DNA of 44,407 nt from Poseidonia sp. (GTDB taxonomy: Archaea; Thermoplasmatota; Poseidoniia; Poseidoniales; Poseidoniaceae): positions 1-44,407 of the forward strand of contig JADHNB010000004.1 of the NCBI GenBank assembly GCA_016779705.1. Direction: 5' to 3'. Shown here piece after piece: positions 1-5,639 of the stretch. Position 1 is the stretch's first letter, and each line of letters starts with the position of its first letter. Below the pieces are notes generated by a model, which had not been told where the DNA came from, did no database searches, and saw only the letters and a program-made list of their open reading frames with translations. The translations under genes and the position numbers were made by a program.

Positions 1-406
1 GGACATCTGGCAAGGCTATACCGGCTCCAAGGCCATCATCAACGGTCAACTCAGACCACACGATCAAGTCTCGAACGATGTCCCAATTTTCAGGATAGCT
101 CTTGTGAAATGGGGGTGGAGGCAACATGCGTTGGAGAATGGAATTGCGACAATTATTGCAGTTCTTGCACAACTGAATCTTGTTGTTGACATCGTTGGTT
201 CCCCCAAGGGAACGCGGATGGATGTGCTCCGTGTTGTGGTTGGTCCCTTCAAAGACGACCCCACAGAGAGGGCAGTCGGCCCGGTGCTGAAGCAATTTCA
301 ACTGATTTGTTTGGCTGATGGCAGTGCCCTTCGCCGTTTTTTTCTTACCTTCAAGGAATAATTTAGCACGATCAATGGACGAAGCGTACCGAACATTGAG
401 GTCCAT
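1..406 (-). CDS. HNH endonuclease domain protein (3' end runs off window)
   Basis: Manual minus-strand translation from ATG at 406: MDLNVRYASS...ADCPLCGVVFEGTNHNTEHIHPRSLGGTNDVNNKIQLCKNCNNCRN. This is the CxxC / EHxxPxxxGG / N / LCxxCN HNH signature. GGAGAAGG lies upstream. An in-frame ATG at 490 is an alternative start. Not in ORF track. Confidence 0.85.
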   Translation of the reverse strand, partial: MDLNVRYASSIDRAKLFLEGKKKTAKGTAISQTNQLKLLQHRADCPLCGVVFEGTNHNTEHIHPRSLGGTNDVNNKIQLCKNCNNCRNSILQRMLPPPPFHKSYPENWDIVRDLIVWSELTVDDGLGAGIALPDV

Positions 407-522
407 CTTTGCCTTCTCCGGGAGTTTTTTGACCCACAGCGGGTTAATCAACCATCGCCAGAAATTTGGAAGGAAACGATGCGAAAACATTCCTTCAAAA
501 GGCAGTTGACGGACCTTCGGCC

Positions 523-3500
523 ATGAGCCGTCGCTACGACCGCCTTGCGGATTGGCTCTTGCCTCGCAAGCGGGGCGCTCACATCGCCGTGATGCTGCTC
601 ACGCTGCTGATGATTCCCGGCGCCATGACCGCGCTGCAGCCCATCGACATGGAATCCTACGAGATGGAGTCACCCGAACTTTCGGCCCAGACGCTGGTCA
701 ACGAGGAATTCCCCAATTCCGAAATCATTCTCGGCTTTCTCGTCTCCACCCGTGACCCCGTTTACGTACCCGAGGTGAACGACTGGACACCGGTTCCCCG
801 AATGGCGGACGGTTCGCCCGATTACGCCTCCCTTATCCCTCCATCCGAGATGCTGGAAGCCGGCGAGCCGTGGAGCGGCATTGACGCGCCCACGGGGGGT
901 ATCCTCAACCTCACCGTGCTTCAGGAACTGGACACCAAGCTGAATTTGGTGTTGGAACACCCGTTGGGACCGGCCCTCAAGCCGCTGGTGAACGACGTCA
1001 CGGGTCACCGCTCCAACGGTGCCATCTCCCTCTCCGACCACTTTCGGGGCTTCATGAACAACACCTCCATCCTCACCCAACCGGGCCTCACCCCGCTGGG
1101 CGTGGTGACCGACCCCCCGACCAACTGGACCGATTGCTTTCCCTTGGCCTGCTTGACCTTTGACGACCCCAACGTCACCCAAGCCCACATCGACATGGCG
1201 GCCGCCCGCATGGCCGAGGCTTCGGACAACAATTTCCTTCGATGGCTGTCGCTGGACCGTGGCTTCAAGGCCGACTACACGGCGTATCAAGACGGCCCGA
1301 TTTTCGGCCAACTCCAAGCAGACGGCTCGTGGGAAGGGGCGCTCTGGGGCAAAGGCCGCTGGACGGCCTCCTCCACCTGGCTGCTCGTGCAACTTGACCG
1401 CACGCAACTGGAGACGATGGGATGGGAAGTCGTGTGGAAGGACGCCCATCAAGAAAAGCAGGTTCAATTCACCGACGAAGGTTTCCGTGTGGGCGGCTAT
1501 CGTTTGGCGGACGGGCAACTCGTGCTCCATCCGCCCCAGTACACCGAAGCGCAATGCCTTGAACTTCAAGCCCAAGGCGAGGGGTGCGCCACCGAATGGA
1601 GTTACATGGACCTCGAGGGTCATCTTCGCAGCCACGACCGCACCACCGTCACGTTGCTCTTGGGCCAAGGCGTGAACGTGGAAGTGAACCGCGAACTGCA
1701 ATCCAGCGCCGGGCTCATCGCCTTGATGGGCTTGGCCATCGTCGTTTTGCTCTTCTTCAGCCTGCGCCGCTGGTCGGACGTCGTCATCGTGATGTTCGCG
1801 TTGGGCGCCGCGTTGCTTTGGATGCAAGGCCTCATCGGCCACTTCGCCAACCTCACGGGATGGTTGGGGTTGAGCCTCATCGCTCGGTCGCAATTTTCCA
1901 ACCTGCTGCCCATCCTCGTGCTGGCCCTGGGCATTGACGATTCCTTGCACGCGCTCCACCGCTACAAGGAGGAGCGCGCCAACGGCAAGTCCAGCCACGA
2001 AGCGGGCCACATCACGCTCGCTCGGGTCGGGCGAGCCATCACGCTGACCTCCATCACCACGATGGCGGCCTTCGCTGCCAACCTGTTCAGCGACATCGCT
2101 GCCTTGCGCTCCTTCGGCATCGAGGCGGCCTTGGGCATCTTGGCGGCGTTTTTGCTCACCGGTCTTTGGGCGCCGCTTCTGCGGGTCAGCGCCGACGATT
2201 GGCTGGACGCACGGGCGGCCAAACGCAACCACAAGGAGGTCAAATCGCTCGTGAACCCTGCGTGGTTGCGAAGCGTCACCCACGGCTCGGGTCAACGTCG
2301 CACCTCCACCGTCATCACCCTCATCGCCGTGTTGCTCACGGTGCCGGCCGCCGTTGGCATGGCCCAACTGGAAGGCGACTTCGCGGTGGAAGATTTTCTC
2401 GACGAGCGCTCCGATTTCGCCGTGGGCGTGGACGAATTGTCCAAGCGGTTTGCCGATGAGGGCGAGCCGGCCAACCTGCTCATCCTCGGGGACGTGCTGG
2501 ACCCGAGGGTGTTTGCGGCCATTGACACGTTCCGTCAGGACATGGACGCCTTGCCCGAAGGCGTGCCGGACAAGATCACTCGTCAGCCCGACGGCACCAT
2601 TGACATCCTGGCCTTGGACGAGATGGTCTTCGCGGCTCAGGGCAGTTTGGTGCTCGACAGCGCACCGTTTGAGGCGGCCGGTTGGCAGCCTGAGGTGGAC
2701 GGGTTTGGCATGAACTGCTCGTTGGCGGGCAACGGCCCGCTGGTCGATACCACGGACCGGGACTGTTTGGCCTTCTTTTACGGCTTCCTGTCCCTCAACG
2801 GCGTGCCCGGCGTCGGCCCGATTCCTGACATCCCCGCCAGCATCGTCCAGCTCTACATCATGCCCGAGGTGGACCTCGACCCGACCCGGCCGTGGTTGGA
2901 CGTGAACGGCGAGCCCGCCGCCTACGGCATGATGCAGATTCGGTTTGGCATGACGCAACCCGAGGACTTCCCCGGCATGCAAGGCGGCGTGGCCGAAGTG
3001 TGGCGCGATTTGGAGGTCTTCACCAACCTCTCCAGCGGCACCTACGAAGAACCGGGCGAAGAGGAAGCGGACAAACCCCTGACGTGGGTTATGCTGACGG
3101 GTCGACCCATCACCCGCTACACCGCTTCCACGGCCATGCAAGACGAAATGCAGTCCTCGCTGATTCTCGGCTCGCTGTTCGTCCTCGCCTCGCTGTCCAT
3201 CGGCTTCCGTTCGCCCAAGCAAGCGGTCGTCACCTTCGTGCCCATTCTGCTGGTCGTGATTTGGCTCTACGGCCTGATGTACGTGGCGGGCTCCTCGCTC
3301 AACATCGTCACGGTGACCATCGCCACCATTTCCCTTGGCGTCGGCATCGATTACTGCATTCACGTGACCGAACGGTACCGTGAGGGGCGGGAAAACGGGG
3401 AATCCCACAGCGACGCTTTGGCTGCGGTGGGCGGTGCGTGCGGCTTGGCCCTGCTCGGCTCGGCCACCTCCGACATCGCCGGTTTCCTCGTCATCGCCCT

Positions 3501-3666
3501 CTCGCCGATGGGGCTGTTCAGCAACTTTGGCATCTTCTCGGCCGCCATGATCGCCCTCTCCCTCGTCGCCAGTTTGGTGTTGACCACCGCCGCCCTTGGC
3601 CTCATCTCAAGCCACGAAGACCTGCCGCATCCCCCGACCTCCAGCCCAGCTGACGAGGAAGCCTGA
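523..3666 (+). CDS. MMPL/RND family transporter (archaeal HAE3-like)
   Basis: Two TM repeats with ALGIDDSLHALHRYKEE and GVGIDYCIHVTERYRE, each after a large extracytoplasmic domain. ATG 523 preferred over TTG 466. Confidence 0.9.
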   Translation: MSRRYDRLADWLLPRKRGAHIAVMLLTLLMIPGAMTALQPIDMESYEMESPELSAQTLVNEEFPNSEIILGFLVSTRDPVYVPEVNDWTPVPRMADGSPDYASLIPPSEMLEAGEPWSGIDAPTGGILNLTVLQELDTKLNLVLEHPLGPALKPLVNDVTGHRSNGAISLSDHFRGFMNNTSILTQPGLTPLGVVTDPPTNWTDCFPLACLTFDDPNVTQAHIDMAAARMAEASDNNFLRWLSLDRGFKADYTAYQDGPIFGQLQADGSWEGALWGKGRWTASSTWLLVQLDRTQLETMGWEVVWKDAHQEKQVQFTDEGFRVGGYRLADGQLVLHPPQYTEAQCLELQAQGEGCATEWSYMDLEGHLRSHDRTTVTLLLGQGVNVEVNRELQSSAGLIALMGLAIVVLLFFSLRRWSDVVIVMFALGAALLWMQGLIGHFANLTGWLGLSLIARSQFSNLLPILVLALGIDDSLHALHRYKEERANGKSSHEAGHITLARVGRAITLTSITTMAAFAANLFSDIAALRSFGIEAALGILAAFLLTGLWAPLLRVSADDWLDARAAKRNHKEVKSLVNPAWLRSVTHGSGQRRTSTVITLIAVLLTVPAAVGMAQLEGDFAVEDFLDERSDFAVGVDELSKRFADEGEPANLLILGDVLDPRVFAAIDTFRQDMDALPEGVPDKITRQPDGTIDILALDEMVFAAQGSLVLDSAPFEAAGWQPEVDGFGMNCSLAGNGPLVDTTDRDCLAFFYGFLSLNGVPGVGPIPDIPASIVQLYIMPEVDLDPTRPWLDVNGEPAAYGMMQIRFGMTQPEDFPGMQGGVAEVWRDLEVFTNLSSGTYEEPGEEEADKPLTWVMLTGRPITRYTASTAMQDEMQSSLILGSLFVLASLSIGFRSPKQAVVTFVPILLVVIWLYGLMYVAGSSLNIVTVTIATISLGVGIDYCIHVTERYREGRENGESHSDALAAVGGACGLALLGSATSDIAGFLVIALSPMGLFSNFGIFSAAMIALSLVASLVLTTAALGLISSHEDLPHPPTSSPADEEA

Positions 3667-3750: not shown

Positions 3751-4503
3751 CTAGGACGGAATCAACAGCACATCGGTTGTGCGCGAGATGGACGTTTCGT
3801 CGATGGCCGACCCCTCCAAATCACAGAAGGTGTAGCCGATGGTTTTGAGTTCGTTGAAGACCGCCAATTCCTCGTCCCATTGGGGGTGAGAGGTTCCCCA
3901 GCCAACCTCGCACAAGATGACCGGGCGTTGGGGCCACGCCCTCAAGGAGTCCAGCATGCCACGAAGGACAAGGTATTCCGAGCCTTCGACGTCGATTTTG
4001 ATGAAGGTCGGGACGGCCTCCGGTTTGCAAGTTTCGAAATGTTTGAGTTGGATGCGAACACGTTCCATGTCGTCCGAGGCCTTCGATTGGATGATGGTGT
4101 TCCAGCCGAGGTTGCCGTTGCTGGCCACGAAAATATCGACCTCAGCGTCGCTATCGCTCAATCCATAGTTGAACACGTGGGCGTCGTAGGAAACGTCGCG
4201 AAACGTTTCCTCACAGAGGCTGGCGAGATGAGGAAGCGGTTCAAACAAGTACATTGACCCTTTGAAACCGATTTTCTCAGCCAGCAAACGAGAGAAGAAC
4301 CCCACGTTTGCACCGATATCGAACACCACCGCATCCTGGTTCACGTAGGGTGTCACGGCCGAAATCAACGCCTCGTAACTCTCCTTCCGAAGTTCGTACC
4401 ACTTCATGGCTTCCTGGTGGGAGACGGACATCGCCGACCGTCGTTTTTCCATGAAGAGGGCCAAGCGATGCTTGAAACGGGTGAAGACGGTGCCTTTGCC
4501 CAA
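3751..4503 (-). CDS. FkbM family SAM-dependent methyltransferase
   Basis: VFDIGANVG, FEP and FIKIDVEGSE motifs. Start uncertain (4503 or 4452). Confidence 0.9.
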   Translation of the reverse strand: MGKGTVFTRFKHRLALFMEKRRSAMSVSHQEAMKWYELRKESYEALISAVTPYVNQDAVVFDIGANVGFFSRLLAEKIGFKGSMYLFEPLPHLASLCEETFRDVSYDAHVFNYGLSDSDAEVDIFVASNGNLGWNTIIQSKASDDMERVRIQLKHFETCKPEAVPTFIKIDVEGSEYLVLRGMLDSLRAWPQRPVILCEVGWGTSHPQWDEELAVFNELKTIGYTFCDLEGSAIDETSISRTTDVLLIPS

Positions 4504-4643
4504 AAAATTCCACCCACCCGTTCCTCGGAACGCCCCCTTTTATTGATTCCGACGCACCGAGTGAAGGCCCCGTCGGTCCAATGGCGCATGACGAAACCGC
4601 TGTTGGCGTAAGCATCATACCTTTCCCAATTCAAGGCCCATCC

Positions 4644-5639
4644 ATGTCCGCCGCCCAAGACTATTACCAGCAGGTCCTCGCGATGGGTCACACGCCCGAA
4701 CATGCACTGGCTTACACCCGTCAGCATTACCCCGATTTCGTCCCCGGTGTTTCCGCACCCGTCGCCGCGCCGGCGCCCACGCCGATGTCCCAACAACCCG
4801 TTCCCGCCGTTCAACCGGCGGCCCAAGCGCCGATTCAAGCGACTCCCGCCCCGATGATGGGCGCCAGTTCTGCGGTAAGCGCCCCCATGGCGGCGCCCAG
4901 CGCCTACGCCCCGATGGGCGTCCCGGTCCCCGCCAGCGGACCCTCGACCATGGTGTGGGCTGCGGTGGGGTGCATCGTGGTCGCGCTGCTGCTGTCCATC
5001 ATCGGCCAGTTCAGTCATTCGTGGATCGTCAACAACGAAGATGAAGGGTTCACCACAGGACTCAACACCGTTCGGATCGATTGTTCATTTGAGGATACAG
5101 AGGTTGATGTGGAAACATGCAAATCGTTTGCGTATGCGTTCCTTTCAGATGACTATGAAACGGCCAGCCAAGAGGACACCTCCGATGCTGATGTGATTCA
5201 AGTCGGAAGATACACCGAGTATTGTGACAACACCTATACGTTCACGGTTCAACTGATTGAAGCGTTCACGACGGATGCGGAGGAGCGCCAATCCGATATG
5301 GCCAATGCATCTGACGCCCGAGACACCTGCCTTGAAACGCCTGCAGCCGGCTCAACCGGCGGCATGGTGCTGTGGGTCGGCTCGCTCGCCGGCCTGCTGG
5401 GTGCCGTGATGTTGGGCGCCGGGGCAACCGGTCGCGCCCTGCCCGCCAACCTTGAGAAGCACGGTCACTGGACGGCCATCGCCGCTGGGGCCCTGATGCT
5501 GCTCGCCGTGCTCGTGTGGTGGGTCTTGTTGCCCGATACGGAACTCGACACCAGCGCCGGCATGGGCGTGTGGATGACGGTGCTGGGCGGCCTTGCCGGC
5601 ATCGCCGCCGGCGTGATGACCCTGCTCGACCAAAAGTGA
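4644..5639 (+). CDS. Four-TM membrane protein, claudin/PMP22-like topology, with P/A-rich N-terminal linker
   Basis: Four hydrophobic helices. W...GL...C...C follows TM1, and the large first loop has 4 Cys. Start placed at ATG 4644. Confidence 0.7.
   Translation: MSAAQDYYQQVLAMGHTPEHALAYTRQHYPDFVPGVSAPVAAPAPTPMSQQPVPAVQPAAQAPIQATPAPMMGASSAVSAPMAAPSAYAPMGVPVPASGPSTMVWAAVGCIVVALLLSIIGQFSHSWIVNNEDEGFTTGLNTVRIDCSFEDTEVDVETCKSFAYAFLSDDYETASQEDTSDADVIQVGRYTEYCDNTYTFTVQLIEAFTTDAEERQSDMANASDARDTCLETPAAGSTGGMVLWVGSLAGLLGAVMLGAGATGRALPANLEKHGHWTAIAAGALMLLAVLVWWVLLPDTELDTSAGMGVWMTVLGGLAGIAAGVMTLLDQK

Follow-up and report, generated by a model that had tools for sequence, protein, structure and literature searches.

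The 44,407-nucleotide stretch of Poseidonia sp. DNA analysed here (assembly GCA_016779705.1, contig JADHNB010000004.1, positions 1 to 44,407; hereafter the window) opens on its minus strand with the 5' part of a gene for an HNH nuclease. On the best reading, this nuclease, from a Poseidonia (Marine Group II) archaeon, belongs to an undescribed archaeal family. With a probability of roughly 55%, it is a horizontally acquired, one-gene accessory nuclease that sits in a variable hotspot and uses winged-helix modules to pick viral or other invader nucleic acid. As an acquired HNH nuclease in a variable region it is of a known kind, in a form and a setting so far undescribed. The parts of the gene that lie in the window are the following, with residues counted from the ATG at 406:

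1..406, minus strand: 5' part of the HNH nuclease gene, codons 1-135 of 560, recognized from the open frame and the overlap with contig C30.
155..274, minus strand: Zn-binding HNH (beta-beta-alpha-metal) core, C45-x2-C48 ... H61 ... N75 ... C80-x2-C83-N84, recognized from Pfam, alignment and fold match.
2..154, minus strand: start (residues 85-135) of the helical extension that follows the HNH core and is peculiar to the family, recognized from the alignment and the model helices.

The nuclease starts with the ATG at 406-404, and its gene runs off the contig end at window position 1. The minus-strand frame, 2..490, is open to the first base of the window and was missed by the ordinary list of open reading frames (ORFs), because it is listed only when ORFs running off the source are allowed. 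Pfam assigns the 163-amino-acid piece encoded in the window to HNH_5 (36.0 bits, cut-off 27.5) and HNH (31.6 bits, cut-off 21.4) at residues 73-116 of that piece, and the full protein of 560 amino acids (aa) reaches 33.1 bits for HNH_5 and 29.4 for HNH, both above the gathering scores. The motif is encoded by codons for C45 (272-274), C48 (263-265), H61 (224-226) and N75 (182-184) in its first half, and for C80 (167-169), C83 (158-160) and N84 (155-157) in its second. All seven residues (7/7) are invariant across 16 aligned family members. The helical extension reaches approximately residue 175, with its later part on C30; in the same alignment W117 is invariant, and D123 and G125 are nearly so.

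The window is the start of contig C105, in an assembly of 106 contigs and 1.51 Mb that is 68% complete. Contig C30 (6403 bp) opens with the exact reverse complement of window positions 1-57, a 57-mer unique in the assembly, and carries the same frame on for 425 further codons (C30 58-1334, including the stop at 1334). The joined product from ATG 406 is the 560-aa database protein P0001, reported from 2 contigs, the longest of 4646 bp. Additionally, a contig of 3017 bases from sequencing run X10, possibly the DNA's own source, matches window 1-700 without a difference and continues 671 bases past position 1, and a contig from run X11, which belongs to another study, reaches 132 bases past it. 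The nuclease gene is real and intact, and it is split over two contigs; allele polymorphism at the site, described below, is probably what broke the assembly here. Exact overlaps join 13 pairs of contig ends in this genome, and 7 of these are 139 bp long, probably the assembler's word size, compared with 57 bp for C30 and C105.

The nuclease gene is compositionally foreign. Its GC content is 0.482 and its GC at third codon positions (GC3) 0.52, and the corresponding values are 0.63 and 0.82 for the neighbouring transporter gene and 0.58 and 0.80 for the gene of an MscS-like channel on the other side. Measured against 3396 genome windows of the ORF's length (mean 0.582, standard deviation 0.023), the ORF lies at z = -4.3, with 0.03% of windows as low. 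The GC trough matches the extent of the ORF and ends with it, and flank-level GC resumes directly afterwards on C30. In Poseidonia the nuclease genes are 3-14 GC points under their flanks, and in low-GC lineages they equal them (e.g. 0.36 vs 0.36), a pattern that fits import from a lower-GC pool. The preliminary description of this stretch had noticed a full Zn-binding HNH motif on the minus strand that the ORF track misses, a GC count of 25/60 in bases 121-180, and a frame that goes on past the HNH domain with a non-HNH extension. The motif is borne out by its seven residues and by Pfam scores above the cut-offs, the count is exact and belongs to an ORF whose low GC goes beyond chance, and the frame, far from stopping just outside the window, gains the 425 codons on C30.

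The insertion site is bounded by two conserved genes, and on the window's side it comprises the following features:

407..469, minus strand: region upstream of the nuclease gene, specific to the cassette and belonging to the insert, presumably with promoter and 5' leader; from spacer comparison and run contigs.
470..505, no strand assigned: conserved intergenic element next to the transporter gene, marking where the insert ends on the left, from 8 + 8 compared spacers.
523..3666, plus strand: flanking core gene for an RND-superfamily (HAE3/MMPL-like) transporter, divergent from the nuclease gene, from NCBIfam.

The transporter is matched by NCBIfam TIGR00921 (E 2.9e-59) and TIGR00833 (E 2.7e-41), in both cases below the curated cut-off. 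On the far side, the MscS-like channel gene (C30 1430-2731) is co-oriented with the nuclease and follows it after a 95-bp gap. Among 40 other genomes of the genus, the transporter is present in 33 (70-91% identity) and the MscS-like gene in 32. The site was surveyed in 24 loci, from 23 genomes, in which both genes stand head to head on one contig. It is empty in 17 of the 24 (spacers of 134-214 bp measured in 8, gaps between matches of 114-199 bp in 9), holds a nuclease relative in the same orientation in 4 (G023, G024, G036, G029) and holds an unrelated 183-aa gene in 3 (G064, G032 and contig C58 of G014). A further nuclease relative, in G030, has a like arrangement at a contig edge.

The element at 470..505, which reads CGCCTTTTGAAGGAATGTTT... 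in the orientation of the nuclease gene, is kept in empty and occupied sites (8 + 8 spacers), as is a second conserved element approximately 50 bp before the MscS start. In empty sites these two flank elements lie 30-110 bp apart, and the sequence between them is variable. The insert replaces this variable middle only, from window 469 to about C30 1370 in this genome, and 407..469 is not common to the empty-site alleles. It is a one-gene insert of about 1.8 kb, with conserved core genes and conserved intergenic elements on both sides. An upstream in-frame ATG at 490 was rejected as the start of the nuclease: it falls inside the element at 470..505, which empty sites also have, and all homologues begin at residues encoded from 406.

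Further comparisons demonstrate that the site is polymorphic. Contigs from runs X7 and X9 agree with the window from 470 onward (470-700) and differ before 470, and these samples hold a further allele with its breakpoint exactly at window 470; a 20-base motif from the loose end of that allele matches none of the compared loci, nor the window's genome. Word depth in the X7 and X9 contigs is lower over the nuclease than over the transporter gene (5 vs 13.5 in X7), which hints that part of the population is without the nuclease gene. One bin, G020, holds both an empty allele (C49) and an allele with viperin plus nuclease (C88), and the latter contig begins with the start codon region of the transporter and the conserved element. 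Alleles at the same site are approximately 45% identical (range about 40-50%) between flanks that are about 90% identical (80-94%), and their N-terminal modules are 38-66% identical. Direct repeats or a target-site duplication at the insert ends were seen neither by eye nor in a short-word blastn of the spacers, no dedicated repeat search having been made, and the transporter/MscS site bears no integrase or mobile-element hallmarks. The 183-aa gene, found for example in G064 (L018:605-1153, plus strand), matches nothing in PADLOC and nothing significantly in Pfam (best DUF7434, E 0.086); it also lies downstream of a nuclease gene in L073 (L073:1626-1904), one of the 66 related loci considered below.

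Relatives of the nuclease are scattered across the genus. They were detected at E<=1e-8 in 15 of 59 other species and not found in 44, where "not found" is to be preferred to "absent" as the genomes without a match are 55-94% complete. Among genomes at least 90% complete, relatives occur in 5 of 10, a count that includes the genome of the window (G000). An earlier draw gave 8/36 in the genus, 0/2 in one further family of the order and 1/22 in another. In its N-terminal module the closest relative in the genus reaches 66% identity. A search of 1.84 billion representative proteins gave 148 matches at E<=0.001, of which 66 pass E<=1e-10 and 41 pass E<=1e-30, most of them confined to query residues 1-180, and a word-index search returned 10 proteins. 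Near-identical DNA of the window's allele is present in runs of 12 studies of sea and estuary water, with no RNA run listed among them, which has no bearing on expression, and all ten related loci in named genome records (10/10) come from metagenome-assembled genomes of Poseidonia, Poseidoniaceae or Marine Group II. A viral origin was considered and rejected, since the 35 pattern matches from one scan of viral contigs include no relative, and PHROGs matches fall on the HNH core only (best E 2.6e-06). Two distant paralogues stand at other genomic sites: one of 577 aa in G033 (contig C1; L012:220-1950, minus strand), 29% identical in the N-terminal module, and one of 527 aa in G003 (contig C55; L011:1477-3057, plus strand), 38% identical. 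The G033 paralogue adjoins a radical-SAM gene that matches the PADLOC candidate PDC-M51A (E 1.2e-12).

These observations bear on the broader proposal of the preliminary description, that a recently acquired defence or mobile nuclease possibly marks the edge of an island, and they uphold it in part. Recent acquisition and accessory, non-core status are supported by the foreign composition, the relatives in 15 of 59 species and the 17 of 24 loci where the site is empty. The island edge does not stand: on C30 the GC recovers to that of the flanks as soon as the ORF ends, the conserved MscS-like gene comes next, and what lies between the core genes and their intergenic elements is a one-gene islet of about 1.8 kb in a variable hotspot. 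The "defence or mobile" part gains some support from the company that relatives keep, described below, which includes prokaryotic viperin (pVip), DNA methyltransferases, a recombinase and a PADLOC candidate gene, and which may point to such a role.

A housekeeping nuclease of DNA repair or recombination, or a regulator co-expressed with the MscS channel, is an extremely doubtful alternative on this distribution. The gene is co-oriented with the MscS-like gene and directly upstream of it, and two relatives show weak Endonuclease_7 matches (E 0.0023 and 0.17). Against these points stand the 44 of 59 species in which the gene was not found, the foreign composition, and the 17 of 24 loci that are empty with MscS intact. 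Furthermore, the conserved element on the MscS side, which empty sites possess as well, separates the nuclease stop from the MscS start, so that the insertion leaves MscS with an upstream region of its own.

The fixed position of the insert is also what a free-standing homing endonuclease or selfish gene would produce, by cutting the empty transporter/MscS spacer and letting repair copy the gene, sometimes together with pVip, into it. Free-standing HNH homing endonucleases of phages are the agents of intronless homing, and the present gene resembles them as a single HNH gene between conserved genes with presence/absence polymorphism. Presence or absence at a single, sharply defined intergenic position with conserved genes on either side (17 empty, 4 with the family and 3 other among the 24 loci), the same site in 36 of 66 related loci, the tight insert boundaries with conserved elements, and the co-occurrence of empty and occupied alleles in one bin (G020: C49, C88) and of alternative alleles in single runs all agree with homing, as do the likely DNA-binding winged-helix modules joined to the HNH nuclease and the foreign GC. 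Recent homing, however, would leave near-identical copies, and the same-site alleles are only about 40-50% identical between flanks of 80-94%. Unlike phage homing endonucleases, these alleles are deeply diverged and modular, differing in their presumed DNA-binding modules; the variable 30-110 bp between the flank elements offers no fixed target across the insertion point; the unrelated 183-aa gene uses the same site; family members occur elsewhere in other contexts; and the 35 pattern matches in viral contigs include no relative. Homing thus explains the fixed site but not the divergence of alleles, the swapping of modules, the unrelated cargo or the other contexts, and is judged unlikely.

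The neighbours of relatives are what connects the acquired nuclease with defence. A total of 66 related loci, 10 from genomes and 56 from metagenomes and not de-replicated, were compared; 36 have a transporter and/or MscS flank, and 17 have both. In 11 of the 66, pVip lies directly upstream of the nuclease at the transporter/MscS site, so that in relatives this site also houses a bona fide antiviral gene. The pVip proteins score E 2.8e-73 to 7.6e-75 in PADLOC and are 58-100% identical to the reference, and in G020:C88 the pVip and nuclease ORFs overlap by 4 bp. Locus L034 shows the order transporter, pVip, short nuclease, long nuclease, the last 65% identical to the window's. In this Poseidonia locus viperin and the two nucleases stand in tandem at the hotspot (L034:4955-7644), and the visible part of the long copy is the N-terminus of P0008, a family protein. 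Among 59 genomes of the genus, pVip was found in 3: in two it immediately precedes the nuclease, and in the third it is a fragment where the contig ends. A maximum-likelihood tree was built from 53 distinct N-terminal modules, midpoint-rooted only and with modules of fewer than 140 residues left out. It groups the 11 viperin-adjacent genes, without exception, in a clade of 17 (support 95/92) and places the window's protein in another clade, of 6 (100/98), together with L045, the second copy of L034, L044, L046 and L047.

Relatives at other sites have further neighbours. L084 carries PDC-S69 (E 8.4e-79) and two D12 methyltransferases beside the nuclease relative, and L090 a serine recombinase and a C5 methylase; PADLOC MTase_II matches for the methyltransferases of L084 and L090 have E 2e-36 and 1.2e-61. 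MksE (E 2.2e-23) and an AAA_23 SMC-like ATPase lie near the relative in L079, a cluster (L079:2673-8460) that also encodes a protein with six DUF4379 treble-clef repeats and a 418-aa protein without a match; it may be Mks/Wadjet-like, and no PADLOC model matches it. An HD/HD-associated (HD dNTPase-like) protein and a DEAD-box helicase adjoin the relative in L074, and a PLD-like protein the one in L096. Finally, in six loci of low-GC lineages a gene for a helix-turn-helix (HTH) protein of 92-100 aa abuts or overlaps the nuclease start, with weak matches to HTH_20, MarR and Sigma70_r4. These small genes, for which no strand is given and whose recognition is by weak profile matches, are:

L069:264-539, small HTH gene.
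L068:218-493, small HTH gene.
L072:295-591, small HTH gene.
L081:1064-1363, small HTH gene.
L092:226-519, small HTH gene.
L093:1816-2094, small HTH gene.

The pairing looks like a two-gene cassette of regulator and nuclease.

By architecture, the nuclease belongs to the HNH superfamily (PF01844/PF14279), and the solved structure nearest to it in both sequence and fold is 4h9d, the Gme HNH nicking endonuclease of Geobacter metallireducens (phmmer E 3.3e-4). The nuclease shares with the superfamily the beta-beta-alpha-metal core, two CxxC pairs, a catalytic His and conserved Asn residues; its last metal ligand is Asn (N84), not His. Unlike the Gme enzyme of 112 residues, it adds a conserved helical extension of approximately 90 residues and about 385 residues of linker and winged-helix modules. 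An AlphaFold2 model built with 16 aligned sequences has a mean predicted local distance difference test score (pLDDT) of 75.4, with about 88 over residues 1-175 and about 88-94 in the helices of residues 81-144. Residues 177-259 are disordered in the model save for a helix at 200-213, and three alpha/beta (winged-helix) modules follow at about 262-360, 361-452 and 467-556 (pLDDT about 80-90). An acidic EEE tail ends the protein, and 31 of 54 complete family ORFs end in EEE. Foldseek of the whole model against the PDB gave no match at E<=0.001, the weak rows being HNH enzymes and tandem winged-helix proteins. The match of the HNH region to 4h9d (Foldseek probability 0.94-0.96; Z 5.8, root-mean-square deviation (rmsd) 4.5 and 92 aligned residues with VIA, a Foldseek-independent aligner) is of modest strength, as expected for a small domain in a 560-residue model.

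For the winged-helix modules, VIA places LOTUS domains at ranks 1, 2, 4 and 5 of 48161 chains, with Z scores under 8, a range that by VIA's own note is common for unrelated folds:

Model 279-360: LOTUS domain of TDRD7, 3rco, Z 6.8, rmsd 2.9, 70/76 aligned.
Model 469-556: LOTUS domain of Tejas, 8wxs, Z 6.8, rmsd 3.1, 75/75 aligned.
Model 467-558: Oskar, 5cd8, Z 6.3, rmsd 3.3, 75/76 aligned.
Model 464-556: TDRD5, 3s93, Z 6.3, rmsd 4.7, 81/81 aligned.

The middle module (361-452) resembles generic winged helices at Z of about 6. In a protein atlas the three nearest named clusters are OST-HTH, at 0.80-0.81 and so below the 0.9 bar, which makes them leads only, and the structural neighbours include clusters of MARF1-LOTUS and of NYN plus OST-HTH, at TM of about 0.3. 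The first and last modules are thus predicted to be LOTUS/OST-HTH-like by fold only. Because they have no link to PF12872 at the sequence level, they are called LOTUS-like winged helices here and not OST-HTH members. The modules are also exchanged: P0007 combines the N-terminus of P0002 (97-100% identical in 40-residue steps) with the C-terminus of P0008 (88-100%), and P0003 and P0008 are alike at their ends and not in the middle. Family alleles are mosaics with shuffled modules.

The LOTUS resemblance gives rise to a further alternative, in which the enzyme would be RNA-directed or toxin-like and would serve abortive infection or addiction: its modules would bind structured RNA or a helicase, and the triggered nuclease would attack host or viral RNA or DNA, stopping the infected cell. 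According to the available part of one survey, LOTUS/OST-HTH domains are predicted to bind RNA and occur joined to NYN-type RNases in both bacterial and eukaryotic proteins (PMC2848206), and the top fold matches and the NYN plus OST-HTH clusters among the atlas neighbours fit that picture. Like MARF1/Limkain-b1 and the bacterial NYN-OST-HTH proteins, which join an NYN/LK-nuclease to tandem OST-HTH/LOTUS domains, the present protein would combine one nuclease domain with several LOTUS-like modules; unlike MARF1-type proteins, it has an HNH domain in place of an NYN/PIN-like one and no sequence match to PF12872. The small HTH gene translationally coupled upstream in the six low-GC loci is reminiscent of toxin-antitoxin or controller pairs, and the conserved linker helix and acidic tail could have an autoinhibitory role. 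HNH domains, however, are mostly DNases, LOTUS homology is unproven at the sequence level, and the window's gene has no HTH or antitoxin-like partner, which together make an RNA-directed or toxin-like enzyme improbable. In the same survey, as far as its text was available, OST-HTH is very rare in archaea and HNH is unmentioned (PMC2848206); the available part of another account mentions OST-HTH only with S1 domains (PMC8195603), and the term is absent from the main text of a third (PMC3710099).

The methyltransferases beside two relatives (two D12 in L084, one C5 in L090) raise the question of a restriction endonuclease, either of a restriction-modification system or of the modification-dependent type (type IV, McrA-like). 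A solitary HNH gene without a methylase is the usual type IV layout, and weak Foldseek rows lead to ScoMcrA (E 0.37-0.43). Those rows are far from significant, profile search of the nuclease found no SRA, SBD or other known modified-base reader, no methyltransferase lies in the 1.8-kb insert or beside it, and the two relatives with methyltransferases nearby are distant ones; the FkbM-family gene beyond the transporter is not of a DNA methylase family. A restriction enzyme is therefore regarded as very unlikely. That FkbM-family methyltransferase gene (window 3751-4503, minus strand; NCBIfam TIGR01444, E 7.2e-22) coincides with a GC dip to 0.52-0.56 just past the transporter and may be another acquired gene. 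A second dip, down to 0.48 at about 4900-5300, lies within an ORF of 352 aa (4581-5639, plus strand) whose product has a proline-rich N-terminal part and hydrophobic stretches.

For the preferred reading, an accessory nuclease directed at invaders, we infer nuclease activity, target, a defence role and the sparing of self as follows. The HNH domain would cut nucleic acid, H61 serving as general base, N84 as a metal ligand and the four Cys as Zn-binding residues. Choice of the target, namely the nucleic acid of viruses or other invading elements, would fall to the interchangeable winged-helix modules, and host DNA would be spared if recognition needs a feature that only invaders have. In relatives, one nuclease subfamily would act as the downstream partner of prokaryotic viperin at the same site, the nuclease standing alone in this genome.

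Several results weigh against this reading. The genome of the window has no pVip at E<=1e-20, its only radical-SAM match, on C68, being 25% identical; the 1.8-kb insert contains no methyltransferase, HTH or other partner gene; and the window's protein lies outside the pVip-adjacent clade, so the viperin link is indirect. The defence context, drawn from metagenome contigs, is guilt by association, and 27 of the 66 related loci, many of them short contigs, have no recognized flank or neighbour. The hotspot holds mostly one family rather than many kinds of system, which fits a site-specific selfish gene as well. In PADLOC-DB 2.0, searched with 5 members, the best hit is DpdF (E 0.0065, 13 bits, only the 45 residues 44-88), and no known defence family was found; NCBIfam offers only a sub-threshold IscB HNH piece (30 bits, cut-off 175), and none of PADLOC, NCBIfam and PHROGs has a family reaching beyond the HNH core. 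As for the modules, none of 10 family members matches PF12872 (OST-HTH) at E<=5, no LOTUS turns up when a profile built from 11 sequences of the last module is compared with the sequences of solved structures (best E 0.029, a designed coiled coil), and the modelled LOTUS likeness is of middling strength, with Z under 8, and at fold level only.

In a bolder version, judged improbable, the family would be immune nucleases that join HNH to LOTUS-like sensors, one branch being the effector partner of pVip that senses viral nucleic acid, or transcripts that the chain-terminating nucleotides made by viperin have stalled, and switches on HNH, and the long form in the window a self-sufficient version. 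If true, the pair would be the first two-gene system of viperin and nuclease, and the site the first defence hotspot to be described in Marine Group II archaea. The known partner of viperin is a nucleotide kinase. Like pVip systems, the family has viperin immediately before a member in 11 of the 66 loci compared; unlike them, the genome of the window lacks pVip and its nuclease comes from a sister clade. Viperin neighbourhoods described in the available part of one preprint contain kinases, with mention there of neither HNH nor a nuclease (bioRxiv 10.1101/2023.09.13.557418). The site itself resembles the core-gene-flanked defence hotspots of bacteria, such as those of Pseudomonas aeruginosa as outlined in the portion of PMC10250203 consulted, in its fixed position, its variable content and its known defence gene, here pVip; it differs in its uncultured marine archaeal host, its cargo of 0 to 3 genes and the dominance of one nuclease family. 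Titles and abstracts in the literature searched describe neither this family nor a viperin-HNH pair, and supplements or further papers may bear on novelty. In the papers searched, neither a common catalytic domain with shuffled LOTUS-like modules nor recurrent coupling to viperin was encountered.

Marine Group II archaea, which have never been cultured, rank with the most abundant microbes in surface ocean water, and their resistance to viruses is known almost only from genomes. The transporter/MscS site is easily recognized, and in Poseidonia its cassettes range from nothing through a modular HNH nuclease, or viperin with nuclease, to the 183-aa gene. In metagenomic time series the hotspot could be used to follow arms races at strain level. 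If the activity proposed for the nuclease is true, an archaeal branch would be added to the defence nucleases, and viperins would gain a new partner.

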